Virus record (IMG/VR): IMGVR_UViG_2663762948_000004
Source of the DNA: a virus
Lineage: Duplodnaviria > Heunggongvirae > Uroviricota > Caudoviricetes
DNA: 3,842 bases
Reading direction: 5' to 3' (one strand)
In this document: positions 1-3,842 of the stretch, in pieces
Numbering within the stretch: position 1 is the first letter of the stretch
Layout of the letters: the number at the start of each line of letters is the position of its first letter
Position numbers and translations under genes: made by a program
The notes under the pieces: model-generated
What the model was told of the DNA's origin: nothing
The model's database searches: none
What the model saw: only the letters and a program-made list of their open reading frames with translations

Positions 1-192
1 TCAGGAGCATTTCTGATTAACGCCACCGTTAAGAATCCACCCCTCAACAGCTTCACGAAGGTATGATTTGGGGTGGGTTCTGACTGGCTTCGGAAATCCG
101 TGCCGTTTGGTATAGTTCCAGATTGTCTGACGTGATGAAACACCGAGCTTGTTCATCACTTCTTTCTCAGGAATCAGGCTGGTATCGGTCAT
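1..192 (-). CDS. AlpA/Xis-family DNA-binding protein (prophage excisionase-like regulator), 63 aa
   Basis: Complete ORF: ATG at 192..190, TGA at 3..1. GGAGA Shine-Dalgarno 6 nt upstream (plus 203-207). Translation LIPEKEVMNKLGVSSRQTIWNYTKRHGFPKPV...EAVEGWI fits the AlpA/Xis winged-helix pattern (S-x-x-TI-W/Y ... G-FP-x-P ... W ... EV-x-x-WI) as I recall it from E. coli AlpA. Confidence 0.7.
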   Translation of the reverse strand: MTDTSLIPEKEVMNKLGVSSRQTIWNYTKRHGFPKPVRTHPKSYLREAVEGWILNGGVNQKCS

Positions 193-351
193 CTTAATTC
201 TCCAGGCAAAAATAAACCGCCATATAGCGGCTCTATCAGATATGTACAGGCCTCATCGAGTGTGAGGCGTTAGTCATTGCGTAGCTCGCTGATTATTCTG
301 TAAGTCTCTGGTGCTTTGCTATCTCACGCAGTGCCTGATAGTCAATCTTGC

Positions 352-519
352 TCACTGGTTGCCTCCTTTACGCCACATCGCATTCAGATATTTGTTTTGA
401 TTCACTGATGGAAAAGAATTTCTCTTAAGCAATTCTTCTCTCGATGGCATTGGCTTTACGCGTTGGCGAATAATCATTTCTGCCGGAAGAATGCCGGGAT
501 TGTATGCAAGTCCTCTCAT
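352..519 (-). CDS. hypothetical small protein, 55 aa (below the ORF-track length cutoff)
   Basis: ATG at 519..517 with GAGGA (plus 527-531) 7 nt upstream, starting 17 nt after the stop of the 104-aa gene; TGA at 354..352. Product [55 protein letters not shown]. No family recognised. Confidence 0.3.
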
Positions 520-535
520 GATTAATTCCTCTTTG

Positions 536-850
536 TTAATTTATTCGTATGCCTGCTCTTTCTTCATCGAGTTTTTTTAGCTTGTATCGCATAGCTCTTA
601 CTGAATAAATTGAGCGGCAGGTTGCAATTGCTATTTCTTCTGCGGAGAACTTACCGAAAAGTGATACTTCGGCTCTTGTCCAGCGTCTTCCACGAAGTCG
701 GCTAACAATGTCAGCTCCAATCCTTGTTGCTTTCGCCATTACTGCTTTTTCAGTCCTTTCCAGTTTTTCAGCGATAACTTCAACTGGCATTGTCGCCGCC
801 ACTTCGCGCAAGAAATCGACTTCCCATTTCTCCCATGGAGTCTTTTTCAT
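536..850 (-). CDS. hypothetical protein with two tandem HTH-like repeats (putative DNA-binding), 104 aa
   Basis: ORF-track ORF, ATG at 850..848, 11 nt downstream of the Gam-like gene stop; no strong SD, so possibly translationally coupled. Residues ~5-45 and ~55-95 are an internal duplication (W-x-EV-x-F/L ... E-x-IA ... R-T/S ... V-x-A ... R/K-I/L), resembling GcrA-N or SANT-like helix-turn-helix motifs. Confidence 0.55.
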
Positions 851-861
851 AGTCGATACCG

Positions 862-1344
862 TTATTTGATAAGAAGTGAAGGTTTCCCAACTTTGAGTTG
901 AGCGCCAGGGATATTTATTCCTGCTTTTAGTTGGTGTTTGATTGCCAGTTTGTCGGCTTTAATTATCGTTTCAAACTCAACGTATTCAGGAGGAAGGGCG
1001 CTTGAGTCGATGATTTCTACAGTTTCTGACGGTTTGCGGATTGTTACCTGGTGAATACCTGCTCGAATCTTTTTCTTGCCAACCATTTCAAGCGATGACG
1101 CTATATACGCCATAATGCTGTCAATCTTATTTTGAATTACTGCGGCTCGCTCATTTAGTGACTTTGCCTCTTCCTTGAGGCGTTCAGCATAACCAGATTC
1201 ATTTTTAATAATGGCGAGAAGTTGCTCTATTTTATCGGTAAATTCTCCTTCCATCCCTTCTATTGTGTCAGCAATCATCTCTGGCTCTAAATCTGAATCC
1301 ATCAATTTTGCGTATTCATTGGCAATTTCATACAGTTTGCTCAC
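862..1344 (-). CDS. Mu-Gam-like / siphovirus Gp157-family protein (putative DNA-end-binding host-nuclease inhibitor), about 160 aa
   Basis: The ORF track starts it at TTG 1350, but GGAGG (plus 1351-1355) sits immediately against that codon and 6 nt upstream of GTG at 1344..1342, so GTG is the likelier start (MSKLYEIANEY...). The C-terminal half (GKKKIRAGIHQVTIRKPSETVEI ... FETIIKADKLAIKHQL ... IPGAQLKVGKPSLLI) resembles my recollection of phage Mu Gam; the N-terminal M-x-KLYE-I pattern is typical of Gp157-family proteins. Overlaps the recT 3' end by 17 nt. Confidence 0.55.
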   Translation of the reverse strand: MSKLYEIANEYAKLMDSDLEPEMIADTIEGMEGEFTDKIEQLLAIIKNESGYAERLKEEAKSLNERAAVIQNKIDSIMAYIASSLEMVGKKKIRAGIHQVTIRKPSETVEIIDSSALPPEYVEFETIIKADKLAIKHQLKAGINIPGAQLKVGKPSLLIK

Positions 1345-2239
1345 TGGCAACCTCCAGTTTCGCTTTGCATTCTATGTAAATGGCTTGTACGTTCTGCTGC
1401 AATTTCATTCCAGATGTCAGGCGATATGCTTCTGCAAAATATCGCTTCAAATCATCCATGTTTTCTGCCTGAGCCATTTCATCACAAAGAAGTTGTGCTT
1501 TATCCGTTATTTCCTGCTGGCGTTTCCGTTCATCTTCGCGGATATCTTCCTCTGATTTGTGCGGCATAACTGGTTCAGTCCACACACCTTCTTCTTCGTT
1601 TAGTACGTGAATAGCACTATCAAGACGTGATGCCTTAGGCCAATACTTGCTTGCACGCTTTACGACCGTCTTTCGCGCCATCTCATTCCAGTGATTTACC
1701 CATGGTCCTTTATCGCTGAATGCCGCCTTGCTTGTTTTCCTTACAGCCTCAATTTCAGCCAGACTCATCTCTTCCGTTAGATAATCACCTGCTGGCGTCT
1801 TAACTGTGCAGTAAACGCCAACGATATCACCACGATCACCGAAGGCGTTGTATTTATGGGTTGGTGCTTTATCAAGCCCGTTTGACTCATAGGTATCGTT
1901 AGCATGAACAAGTTTTGCCTGACCCCATGAGATAACACCAGACTCCATTGCAATATGGAGCAATCCCATATAGCTGATATCAAGGCACACCATGCCGTCG
2001 CGAGGAACCAGATAAGCCAGTTTGCTGGCCGGGTTTAAGGTGATGCCGATCGCCGCAACATTGATGATGGCGTTCTGTGCGCTGGTTGGATTTGCCAGTG
2101 CTGTTTTAGCCAGGTAATCGTTTTTCTGGAAATACTGAATTGCAAACTGGCTTTCCTTAGCCCATGTCACCGTCTGTTCAGTCAATGCTCCGCAGAATAA
2201 CTGCTCCTGCTGTTTAACGAATTCAACGATATTGCTCAT
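1328..2239 (-). CDS. recT: RecT-family single-strand annealing protein (phage recombinase), 303 aa
   Basis: Complete ORF; ATG at 2239..2237 with GGAGA 6 nt upstream; ATGA overlap with the upstream 103-aa ORF. Contains the conserved RecT core GPWVNHWNEMARKTVVKRASKYWP (compare Rac RecT GPWVTHWEEMAKKTAIRRLFKYLP, from memory) and the upstream SYMGLLHIAMESG block. Confidence 0.85.
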   Translation of the reverse strand: MSNIVEFVKQQEQLFCGALTEQTVTWAKESQFAIQYFQKNDYLAKTALANPTSAQNAIINVAAIGITLNPASKLAYLVPRDGMVCLDISYMGLLHIAMESGVISWGQAKLVHANDTYESNGLDKAPTHKYNAFGDRGDIVGVYCTVKTPAGDYLTEEMSLAEIEAVRKTSKAAFSDKGPWVNHWNEMARKTVVKRASKYWPKASRLDSAIHVLNEEEGVWTEPVMPHKSEEDIREDERKRQQEITDKAQLLCDEMAQAENMDDLKRYFAEAYRLTSGMKLQQNVQAIYIECKAKLEVASEQTV

Positions 2240-2547
2240 GCAGCTTCTCCAAAAATGTGTCTGCGTTTGAATATTGCGAAGGCATATTCAGCCTTAACTC
2301 TTTCGGTTATTGCATCCCAGAACCATTCAGCGGCTTTTTCCTGATAGTTACAGTCATCATCTTCCAGCCAGTCGATAGCGTCCTTAGTGTGTTCATCTGG
2401 TTTATATGAGCGAAGCATTTCGCTTATTGGGTCGCAACGTTTGCAGAGGCGATCAACTTCACTGTTGATTCGTTCGTAATCTTCATCAGTAAAACTTGCG
2501 ATTATTTGCGATATTTCACGCTTATCATTCAGAGTCAGAATCATCAT
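2236..2547 (-). CDS. hypothetical acidic protein, 103 aa
   Basis: ORF-track ORF with tandem ATG ATG start (2547..2542) and AGGAG 4 and 7 nt upstream; stop overlaps the recT start (ATGA). By my count 24 Asp+Glu against 15 Lys+Arg, with a DWLEDDD acidic patch. No family recognised. Confidence 0.55.
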   Translation of the reverse strand: MMILTLNDKREISQIIASFTDEDYERINSEVDRLCKRCDPISEMLRSYKPDEHTKDAIDWLEDDDCNYQEKAAEWFWDAITERVKAEYAFAIFKRRHIFGEAA

Positions 2548-2632
2548 CTTTCTCCTGTTCTTTGTGCTGATTGAGCATTTCTTTCATCTGACGAATGAAT
2601 TCTTCGTCTGACCAGTTATCTGTAAAACTCAT
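2525..2632 (-). CDS. hypothetical highly acidic peptide, 35 aa
   Basis: ATG at 2632..2630 overlaps the TGA of the upstream 50-aa ORF (ATGA), suggesting translational coupling; its own SD is poor (AGGAA directly abutting the ATG). Product MSFTDNWSDEEFIRQMKEMLNQHKEQEKDDDSDSE, 12 acidic against 4 basic residues. Its 3' end overlaps the 103-aa ORF start by 23 nt. Confidence 0.25.
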   Translation of the reverse strand: MSFTDNWSDEEFIRQMKEMLNQHKEQEKDDDSDSE

Positions 2633-2781
2633 TTCCTGCGATACCACGGAAGGTTGATAGCTGATTTCATCGCTTTATTTGCTTCAAGCCACATTTTTGA
2701 ATCAACAATAAATCGGGCTATTACTGCTTTGTTCTGTGCAGCACGAAGCATCTGGTGATTAATGGCTATTTCATTGCGCAT
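2629..2781 (-). CDS. hypothetical basic small protein, 50 aa
   Basis: ATG at 2781..2779 with GGAG 5 nt upstream; overlaps the 3' end of the 44-aa ORF by 16 nt. Product MRNEIAINHQMLRAAQNKAVIARFIVDSKMWLEANKAMKSAINLPWYRRK. Below the ORF-track cutoff; no family recognised. Confidence 0.3.
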   Translation of the reverse strand: MRNEIAINHQMLRAAQNKAVIARFIVDSKMWLEANKAMKSAINLPWYRRK

Positions 2782-2900
2782 AACGACTCCAGTTGTTTCT
2801 TTGCTGCTCTGATTAATTGTTTAACTCGGCGTGATAATTCAGATTCGTGCGGGTAGAAAGCGGACATGACGCCGCTACCCGCGAGCTGAAAGTGCATCAT
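2766..2900 (-). CDS. hypothetical small protein, 44 aa (internal-start version of the 92-aa track ORF 2766..3044)
   Basis: ATG ATG at 2900..2895 is preceded by a strong AAGGAG (plus 2907-2912) with 6-nt spacing. The 92-aa alternative starts at 3044 with no usable SD and would read through the terminator-like hairpin at 2964-2988. Product MMHFQLAGSGVMSAFYPHESELSRRVKQLIRAAKKQLESLCAMK. Confidence 0.4.
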   Translation of the reverse strand: MMHFQLAGSGVMSAFYPHESELSRRVKQLIRAAKKQLESLCAMK

Positions 2901-2963
2901 GGGTAACTCCTTATATTTGATTGCATAACGAAAACGCCTCGAGTGAAGCGTTATTGGTATGCT

Positions 2964-2988
2964 AAAAAAGGCCCTCACATTGGAGGGC
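2964..2988 (-). terminator. putative Rho-independent terminator on the minus strand
   Basis: Minus-strand reading GCCCTC-caatgt-GAGGGC-c-TTTTTT: a 6-bp stem with 5 G:C pairs (plus 2971-2976 pairing 2983-2988), a 6-nt loop, then a T6 tract (plus 2964-2969). It lies in the 183-bp gap between the 62-aa gene stop and the 44-aa ORF start. Confidence 0.5.
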
Positions 2989-3083: not shown

Positions 3084-3272
3084 TTATTCGTCATGCATTT
3101 CAGGTAATTCTTCGTATTCGACTCCCCATACGAGTTTACACCAAGTGACTCGCTCATATCTTTTACAAAAATCAGACCACATAACTTGTGTTCCATCATG
3201 GTTTGTTATTACTTCTGTAATATCACCAACACTAACAAAACTGGTATTAGAAGCAGTTATTTTTACTTTCAT
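3084..3272 (-). CDS. hypothetical small protein, 62 aa
   Basis: ORF-track ORF; ATG at 3272..3270 overlaps the TAA of the upstream 98-aa gene by 1 nt (TAATG), with GGGGA 6 nt upstream. No family recognised. Confidence 0.5.
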   Translation of the reverse strand: MKVKITASNTSFVSVGDITEVITNHDGTQVMWSDFCKRYERVTWCKLVWGVEYEELPEMHDE

Positions 3273-3568
3273 TACTTATCCCCAAGAGCTTTTCTGATTG
3301 CTGCGATACCTTTATTAACAGCTCCATACCATTCTGGATATGTTGTCGTTGTTCTATTTTTGGTTTGCTTAAGTAATAACTGAAGTGCTTCGAGAAGGTC
3401 AGGCGCTGCCGCTATTAGATTGGCATCTTCAATGCATTGAACTTCCTCACAGATTGCAATATACGAACGCCAGCCAGTGCCATTTTCAAGAGAGTCTGCC
3501 TGGATGATTTTAATCTCATCGCCATCCATCATTATTTCCCACTTACCTTCAGTACCTTTAAATTCCAT
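3272..3568 (-). CDS. Ead/Ea22-like prophage protein (tentative), 98 aa
   Basis: ORF-track ORF; ATG at 3568..3566 with GAGG 5 nt upstream. The motif ANLIAAAPDLLEALQ matches my recollection of the conserved A-N-x-R-LIAAAPELLEAL region of enterobacterial prophage Ead/Ea22-like proteins. The assignment is from memory only. Confidence 0.5.
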   Translation of the reverse strand: MEFKGTEGKWEIMMDGDEIKIIQADSLENGTGWRSYIAICEEVQCIEDANLIAAAPDLLEALQLLLKQTKNRTTTTYPEWYGAVNKGIAAIRKALGDK

Positions 3569-3620
3569 GTTAGCCTCTGTTGTTTATGCCAAAAATAAAG
3601 GCCACCGTCAGGCAGCCTTG

Positions 3621-3842
3621 TGAATCGCCACGGATAATCTAGACACTTCCGAGCCGTTGATAATACTGGTTTTCATATTCTGTCGGTGACATCTGTTCGC
3701 TAGAACCATGCCGACGCTTACTGTTATAAAACATTTCGATGTAATCAAAAATATCACTGCGGGCTTCTTCCCGCGTTCCGTAGATCTTTTTCTTTATCCG
3801 TTCACGTTTCAACAACTGGAAAAAACTTTCTGCAACCGCATT
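3621..3842 (-). mobile_element. IS3-family insertion sequence, right-end portion (partial; terminus placed approximately)
   Basis: Contains the transposase 3' end. The terminus is inferred at about plus 3619-3622, where TGTGAATCGCCACGG begins with the 5'-TG typical of IS3-family ends and resembles IS3-group terminal repeats as I recall them. It must lie right of 3580 because the 98-aa gene RBS and start are at 3566-3580. Confidence 0.5.
3639..3842 (-). CDS. IS3-family transposase OrfB (DDE integrase catalytic domain), C-terminal 67 aa; 5' end outside the window
   Basis: Minus-strand frame open to the window edge, TAG at 3641..3639. Translation NAVAESFFQLLKRERIKKKIYGTREEARSDIFDYIEMFYNSKRRHGSSEQMSPTEYENQYYQRLGSV carries the IS3-family signature around the third catalytic acidic residue (N-A-x-x-E-S-F-F with a basic residue 7 positions later) and the F-Y-N-x-x-R-x-H tail. 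Confidence 0.8.
   Translation of the reverse strand, partial: NAVAESFFQLLKRERIKKKIYGTREEARSDIFDYIEMFYNSKRRHGSSEQMSPTEYENQYYQRLGSV

Follow-up and report, generated by a model that had tools for sequence, protein, structure and literature searches.

A tandem Myb/SANT-like helix-turn-helix protein at the downstream edge of phage recombination modules and its probable kinship with P22 Abc1

What does a small protein built from two helix-turn-helix (HTH) units do immediately behind the recombination (Rec) genes of a lambdoid prophage? The question is raised by a stretch of DNA of 3,842 bp (hereafter, the window), in which all genes are on the minus strand and which is part of the early-left (pL) operon of a lambdoid prophage. 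The initial annotation of the window had placed such a protein right after recombination genes, and RecT and Gp157 genes are indeed located directly upstream of it. The genes of the window, in the order of the operon, are as follows:

3639-3815, minus strand: 3' end of an IS3-family transposase gene (rve_2, 1.3e-12)
3272-3568, minus strand: phrog_1273 gene (PHROG match)
3084-3272, minus strand: phrog_10407 gene (PHROG match)
2766-2903, minus strand: cIII (PF08134, 2.2e-30)
2629-2781, minus strand: kil
2236-2547, minus strand: phrog_3486 gene (PHROG match)
1328..2239, minus strand: RecT-family single-strand annealing protein (PF03837, 2.9e-32; phrog_148, 3.7e-92)
862..1350, minus strand: Siphovirus Gp157/Mu-Gam-like gene (PF05565, 2.2e-36; phrog_253, 1.5e-52)
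536..850, minus strand: target gene, encoding a 104-aa tandem Myb/SANT-like HTH protein (ORF call; stop codon at 536-538)
352..519, minus strand: DUF2737 gene (PF10930, 9.1e-32)
1-192, minus strand: AlpA/excisionase-like gene (phrog_66, 1.9e-8)

The Gp157/Mu-Gam-like gene directly precedes the target gene in the same operon, with a gap of 11 nt, and the DUF2737 gene directly follows it after a gap of 16 nt, in which we read a good Shine-Dalgarno sequence (AAGAGGAA). Upstream, the operon is interrupted by the IS3-family transposase gene, which is present as its 3' end and resembles ISSen4 of a related E. coli prophage (L002); N, nutL and pL are absent from the window. A strong terminator-like hairpin is located at 3598-3619 (minus strand), and two consecutive ones at 2933-2988 (minus strand), just upstream of cIII, occupy a position comparable to that of the annotated pre-c3 terminator of P22. 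Within the window, no convincing operator-like repeats or palindromes were found near the target gene. At the other end, only about 160 nt (193-366) lie between the DUF2737 and AlpA-like genes, where the ea genes of phage HK140 take up ~2.8 kb. The ribosome-site and start context of the Gp157 gene recurs, as direct repeat D3 (348-366 and 1337-1355), in a remnant of 20 codons with a GTG at about 355, and a terminator-like hairpin is found at 214-233 (minus strand). The short spacing and the remnant suggest a deletion of the ea region.

The target is a real lambdoid-prophage protein. Using a 401-bp stretch around the gene, we found it at ≥95 per cent identity in 299 of 5426 complete E. coli genomes, with every copy chromosomal, and a homologue search recovered 51 homologues of the protein. 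Phages Kapi1, HK140, mEpX1, Gally, Louie and Dewey have the same gene arrangement as the window (96–99 per cent identity). All 14 phage records with the window's Gp157 type (≥95 per cent identity) carry the target gene, 12 of them complete and two as a 72-codon fragment. The fragments, in phages EC.P3 (H50) and E212 (H51), encode residues 1–72 alone and are unannotated. Both may be truncated copies, and the E212 case could alternatively be a match that runs across the record ends.

Database names for this protein diverge. In RefSeq, the product is a 'hypothetical protein', PHROG-based annotation yields 'transcriptional regulator, D5-like' (PHROG 323), and a homologue in phage Gally is labelled 'Anti-RecBCD protein 1, similar to P22gp35_Abc1'. 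The protein matches the profiles phrog_11492 (4.6e-23) and phrog_323 (2.8e-20). Nothing in Pfam or NCBIfam is matched above threshold (the best Pfam model, HTH_12, scores 20.7 bits against a cut-off of 21.4), and no PADLOC defence-system model is matched at E ≤ 0.1.

Structurally, the protein divides into four segments:

713..838, minus strand: HTH unit 1, residues 5–46 (AF2 model; helices 8–17, 23–30 and 34–44)
686..712, minus strand: basic linker, residues 47–55, DIVSRLRGR, net charge +2 (lowest-confidence part of the AF2 model)
572..685, minus strand: HTH unit 2, residues 56–93 (AF2 model; helices 59–66, 70–77 and 81 onward)
539..571, minus strand: C-terminal tail, residues 94–104 (modelled as a continuation of helix 3)

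The initial annotation had described two tandem HTH-like repeats, to be checked by structure prediction and by the significance of the repeat in a self-alignment. AlphaFold2 (AF2; 11-sequence alignment) returned two three-helix bundles with a mean pLDDT of 82.3 and a lower-confidence linker between them (pLDDT of 68 for residues 51–60). The model thereby shows the tandem three-helix bundles with a helix 2–turn–helix 3 arrangement that are expected of a Myb/SANT-like repeat (about 50 aa per unit). Their mutual orientation is undefined in the model, as the pTM is 0.46. The tail is poorly conserved, is missing from several relatives and has a pLDDT of 56 in the last block. Self-alignment of the two halves as single sequences scored no better than shuffled sequences (z about 0; 5,000 shuffles). 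Because this comparison gave no signal, the repeat was tested by profile–profile comparison instead. Unit 1 aligned to unit 2 with an hhalign P-value of 1.9e-4 when close homologues were used and of 3.7e-7 (probability of 93 per cent, score of 31.8) when 17 diverse members were used; 60 column-shuffled controls for the latter scored 9.0 +/- 2.0, with a maximum of 18. Relatives of ~150 aa have a third unit, which aligns to unit 2 at an hhalign E-value of 3.5e-11. The repeat is therefore confirmed, although it takes profiles to reveal it.

In the family alignment, residues W6, E10, F13, I26, K29, L30, R32 and G45 of unit 1 and W57, T77 and R79 of unit 2 are invariant, and the subfamily is recognizable by the motifs W-E-x-[WY]-E-x-x-F-L ... 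I-A-E-K-L-E-R-[ST] and W-T-x-x-E ... T-G-R-[ST]-I-x-S-V-R-x-K-R. The invariant residues are core positions (W6, F13, I26, L30 and W57) together with the R-[ST] that caps the N-terminus of either recognition helix, a pattern shared with Myb repeats. A net positive charge is carried by both third helices in 14 of 14 aligned members (+2 to +4 in unit 1 and +1 to +6 in unit 2; +3 and +6, respectively, in the target), and the linker carries +1 to +3 in the same members. The C-terminal half of the target (residues 51–104) has a pI of 10.9.

A likeness of the units to SANT/Myb or GcrA-N motifs, also proposed initially, is borne out by fold matches of the AF2 model and by Pfam matches of multi-repeat relatives. 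The closest structural matches of the model are DNA-bound domains, namely the GcrA DNA-binding domain (DBD), Tc3 and c-Myb. Foldseek comparison with viral models retrieved many uncharacterized phage proteins of ~100 aa, a few of which are named 'Myb-like', 'GcrA' or 'D5 protein'. In a family-profile search of 1.84 billion cluster representatives, there were 3,282 matches at E ≤ 1e-3; among the best 143 new matches, 12 have two units, six have three and the rest have 4–10, with a median period of 46.5 aa. When 10 multi-repeat relatives were compared with Pfam, nine matched Myb_DNA-binding and/or Myb_DNA-bind_6, five matched GcrA and nine matched Sigma70_r4_2; one of the relatives, P0053, matches Pfam Myb at 2e-41. 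From the Pfam matches of these relatives and the Foldseek matches, we therefore conclude that the target unit is a bacterial/phage Myb/SANT-like HTH, and the two-unit proteins are one small branch of this group. For the target itself, the profile link to Myb is transitive, running only via the relatives, as neither PF00249 nor PF13921 is matched at E ≤ 1. A profile search of PDB sequences with the target family gave a weak match of unit 1 to the C-terminal LuxR-type HTH of NarL (E = 0.0023), chance matches to neuraminidases and nothing else. Sub-threshold, region-4-like Sigma70_r4_2 matches occur in the 150-aa relatives and in Abc1, and there are none in the target.

The larger relatives have architectures of their own. 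P0053 carries nine near-identical Myb-like units behind an N-terminal SF2 helicase (ResIII/Helicase_C), and P0053, P0055, P0059, P0063 and others are long proteins with 4–10 tandem Myb-like units at a period of ~46 aa. In the literature, our searches turned up nothing relevant on Myb-like proteins of RecT prophage modules.

To which genes is the family linked? Across all 80 IMG/VR loci, RecT and Gp157 precede the target gene in every case in which the flanking DNA is available; these loci are near-identical copies, suited to counting linkage and not to gauging diversity. A scan of genome contigs with eight closer sequences produced seven loci, and scans with P0125 and P0164 produced no matches. 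Loci with diverged family members (with identity to the target) have the following genes directly upstream:

Citrobacter, Enterobacter and Erwinia loci (51–59 per cent): RecT-Gp157
L095 (nearest relatives of its copies, 34–35 per cent): RecT-Gp157, then two tandem paralogues
Yersinia, L092 (43 per cent): DUF3799 exonuclease-RecT of another subtype
L093 (44 per cent for its representative, P0086): DUF3799 exonuclease-RecT of another subtype
Enterobacter, L097-99 (51 per cent): exoVIII-like-phrog_11517
Salmonella phage SEN22 (91 per cent): exoVIII-like-phrog_11517
Salmonella three-unit variant, L096 (57–63 per cent): Gam-phrog_21613-YqaJ
L100 (47 per cent for its representative, P0138): Bet-like-YqaJ

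RecT and Gp157 are directly upstream of the family member in the window, the 80 IMG/VR loci and L086, L087, L090, L091 and L095, a set that takes in members of 35–60 per cent identity, and in several loci the family member and the preceding gene overlap at start and stop codons. The diverged loci thus place the family at the 3' edge of Rec modules of five different compositions; Erf-Abc1-Abc2 of P22 is a sixth type, if Abc1 is counted.

Several of these loci have further features. The two-unit paralogues of L095, a single IMG/VR contig (99 and 93 aa; 4238-4537 and 4534-4815), have overlapping stop and start codons. The proteins phrog_11517 and, in L096, phrog_21613 occupy the position expected for an annealing protein and may be unrecognized single-strand annealing proteins. 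In several modules of different composition, a phrog_3486 protein of ~100 aa is encoded immediately ahead of the first Rec gene (window, 2236-2547, minus strand; L092:3936-4229; L095:2550-2852; L097:3306-3614). This protein and the target bracket the Rec module, the former at its upstream edge and the latter at its downstream edge. The copies in the window, L091 and L097 were matched by search, and those in L092 and L095 were assigned by position and size.

Two phages bear on what the linkage means. In SEN22 (L104, 1611-3315), the 91 per cent identical copy is located behind an exoVIII-like gene and a gene for a 189-aa phrog_11517 protein in place of RecT and Gp157; a mosaic breakpoint therefore coincides exactly with the start (5' end) of the target gene. 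As so similar a copy is found with a wholly different Rec module, the protein is neither matched to, nor co-evolving with, one annealing protein. In HK639, RecT and a Gp157 of 62 per cent identity are followed, in the target's slot, by a different HTH 'regulator' (L103:2992-3420; unrelated, 142 aa, with a sub-threshold HTH_11 match). Given these two cases, the association could mean a conserved slot in a strongly collinear operon and not a shared mechanism. Small HTH proteins of different families recur in this slot.

The initial annotation had recognized no characterized family, a statement that needs qualifying, since PHROG 323 is shared with Abc1 of phage P22 and the Gally label names Abc1, whose own role in recombination is known only genetically. 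The gene abc1 (gp35, 94 aa) is located directly after erf and before abc2 and orf56, and orf56 is a relative of the window's DUF2737 gene (detected together by tblastn and found at the same place in the fetched loci). Abc1 is a two-HTH protein, the second unit of which has a Myb-like signature, W-[ST]-x-x-E ... G-R-S-x-x-S-V-x-x-R. Its match to phrog_323 (1.3e-23) compares with that of the target (2.8e-20). Against the HMM of the two-unit family, Abc1 scores 17.3 bits (P = 2e-7 as a single comparison), collinear end to end over both units. Direct comparison of Abc1 with the target by hhalign gives P = 0.0019 (probability of 14 per cent, 76 columns), and BLASTP of the target against Abc1 gives no alignment. 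The Abc1 profile could not be broadened because full-length members, mostly from Salmonella, are all ≥88 per cent identical, making this a narrow family. We read the tie as probable remote homology, or at least shared architecture, with the target outside the narrow Abc1 family. The profile similarity could be a generic Myb-like HTH resemblance, as phrog_323 is itself a repeat profile. Like Abc1, the target is a small two-HTH protein at the end of a pL recombination module.

Abc1 aids homologous recombination and is non-essential, as known from genetics (PMC12315714). Expressed alone, it causes cell death that depends on the P4 satellite and maps to a P4 intergenic region, and it sensitizes several E. 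coli hosts to phage, an effect phenocopied by disruption of O-antigen or capsule; affinity purification–mass spectrometry (AP-MS) showed no clear partner, and the authors suggested an HTH protein working on transcription (bioRxiv 10.1101/2023.04.06.535777, PMC12373910). Names in this group call for care. The HK620 'abc1', named by position, proved to be an SSB (PMC5928155). The 94-aa Abc1 relatives P0196-P0212 are called 'sigma-70 family RNA polymerase sigma factor' in RefSeq/PGAP on the basis of a Sigma70_r4_2 match to one HTH unit, which is probably an over-annotation.

The best explanation, to which we assign a probability of roughly 0.5 as a whole, is that the target gene encodes a small delayed-early protein of the prophage leftward (pL) operon that is a remote relative and positional counterpart of P22 Abc1. 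In the best-supported model, one chain would bind duplex DNA in bipartite fashion. The positively charged third (recognition) helices of both units would enter neighbouring major grooves, a mode known from c-Myb R2R3 and from the bipartite domain of Tc3. The basic linker would lie between the units, and a monomer would cover a bipartite site of roughly 10–16 bp. Through such binding, the protein would assist the recombination/anti-RecBCD module without being essential to it, a role that genetics showed for Abc1, either on DNA substrates or via altered transcription of host or resident-element genes. The initial proposal of a DNA-binding regulator or recombination accessory is plausible; of a DNA-binding helper and an excision factor, the protein is probably the former. 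As we infer what binding achieves from Abc1 alone, an Abc1-like DNA-binding accessory of the Rec module receives even odds, and the alternatives receive the lower weights given with each of them below.

A role as a stand-alone modulator of transcription, serving host takeover or conflict between elements, is a tentative second possibility. Such a protein would bind specific promoters of the host, resident prophages or satellites, or mimic sigma-70 region 4 at RNA polymerase, and its adjacency to Rec genes would be inherited order; the adjacency may indeed only mirror the conserved gene order of lambdoid early-left operons. The only experimental phenotypes of Abc1, P4-satellite-dependent toxicity and broad phage sensitization, are transcription-like, relatives match Sigma70_r4_2 and the target weakly matches NarL, and two annotation systems point the same way (a transcriptional regulator label in PHROG for the target family and the PGAP sigma-factor name for Abc1 relatives). 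The SEN22 copy behind an unrelated Rec module and the other HTH regulator in the HK639 slot also fit. However, family members stand immediately after five Rec module types over 35–60 per cent sequence divergence, with frequent start/stop overlaps, a persistence beyond what so mosaic a region would lead one to expect of unrelated cargo; Abc1 is genetically tied to recombination (PMC12315714), and for a transcription role neither a target site nor a regulon is known.

SANT-type units can bind protein instead of DNA, and Abc2, which binds RecC, offers a model for a protein-binding adaptor that would dock on a host protein (RecBCD, SSB or another repair factor) and have no DNA-binding activity. 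We consider this unlikely for the target, as a basic third helix is a family-wide feature of both units, the model most closely resembles the DNA-bound domains named above, and Abc1 yielded no clear partner in AP-MS.

A recombination directionality factor (RDF) or excision accessory bending att DNA for the integrase, as suggested initially, is highly improbable: small basic HTH proteins often act as RDFs, but the fold is Myb-like and not the winged helix of Xis or an AlpA/MerR-like fold beside an integrase, DUF2737 stands between the target and int/xis, joined in intact relatives by 2–3 kb of ea genes, the window (at 1-192) and its relatives have their own AlpA-like or excisionase genes beside int, and the target gene tracks Rec modules and not integrase types. 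The single exception, which speaks for an RDF, is an in-frame fusion of a three-unit homologue to a DUF1233 putative excisionase domain directly upstream of an integrase gene in Scandinavium manionii (L089:5986-6708; DUF1233 at residues 162–231, 5.9e-29); it was seen once, possibly in a decayed prophage, and has no match among 224 collected proteins. It may be a deletion fusion in such a prophage or a genuine HTH-Xis chimera. Upstream of it are a cI-like repressor gene and a pair of HipA-like kinase and DUF3037 genes. Of the initial interpretation as a whole, the tandem HTH units, their Myb/SANT/GcrA-N shape and the position after the Rec genes stand, and the RDF is unsupported.

Returning to the Abc1-like accessory, a wider form of it is conceivable, though we hold it doubtful. 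The tandem Myb-like HTH subfamily, together with Abc1, would be a generic part, hitherto overlooked, of the recombination modules that phages base on single-strand annealing. Its members would assist any annealing protein (RecT, Bet and Erf as well as unnamed types) by acting on DNA or on a host factor. This would explain why the family is retained at the 3' end of Rec modules of at least five different builds.

The RecT/Bet/Erf modules of lambdoid phages underlie recombineering, and to our knowledge small accessory genes of such modules (Abc1, Arf, orf60a-type) are still functionally blank. A conserved two-unit Myb/SANT-like protein, predicted to bind DNA, at the downstream boundary of five Rec module types is a more informative annotation than either 'hypothetical protein' or 'sigma-70 family sigma factor'. 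By sequence comparison, the family appears related to Abc1 and is placed inside a very large, mostly unannotated prokaryotic/phage repeat family (3,282 representatives, up to 10 units). Its value is a testable link between this abundant family of HTH repeats and phage recombination modules. If the generic helper is real, it could improve recombineering, and Abc1 would gain a mechanism after nearly 40 years; if the target is only a generic regulator, the finding is ordinary.

How does the target compare with known systems? GcrA of Caulobacter (PDB 5yiu) has one such N-terminal DBD and a C-terminal sigma-70-interacting domain, the latter missing from the target. The target does not match the GcrA model PF07750, and a GcrA orthologue is rejected on domain content. 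The bipartite HTH domains of Tc3 transposase and paired-type proteins share a likeness of fold only (8–9 per cent identity), and the target has no transposase catalytic domain. Compared with proteins with sigma-70 region 4 or a LuxR-GerE domain (NarL), the target has neither sigma regions 2/3 nor a receiver domain, and all its own matches are below cut-off. A sigma-70 family sigma factor, with regions 2 and 4 on one chain, is likewise rejected, because 104 aa are too short for region 2.

The Myb R2R3/SANT proteins (c-Myb, WER and Cdc5/CEF1) are eukaryotic, whereas the target is a protein of a bacterial virus without flanking activation domains. The three-tryptophan core of Myb is absent from the target in the alignment. 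The first tryptophan of each unit (W6 and W57) alone is kept, as in many SANT/GcrA-type units, and the second and third members of the triad are replaced by aliphatic residues (I26/I44 and I73/L91). Abc1 differs in that its unit 1 lacks the W-E-x-W-E-x-x-F-L and IAEKLER motifs of the target, and it precedes the anti-RecBCD gene abc2, whereas the target follows a Gp157/Mu-Gam-like gene. Yet Abc1, directly after the annealing gene erf, and the target, likewise at the end of a pL recombination module, are both small proteins of two consecutive HTH units and belong to PHROG 323, and in either pL operon the gene falls in the stretch that begins with the Rec genes and ends with a DUF2737 gene.
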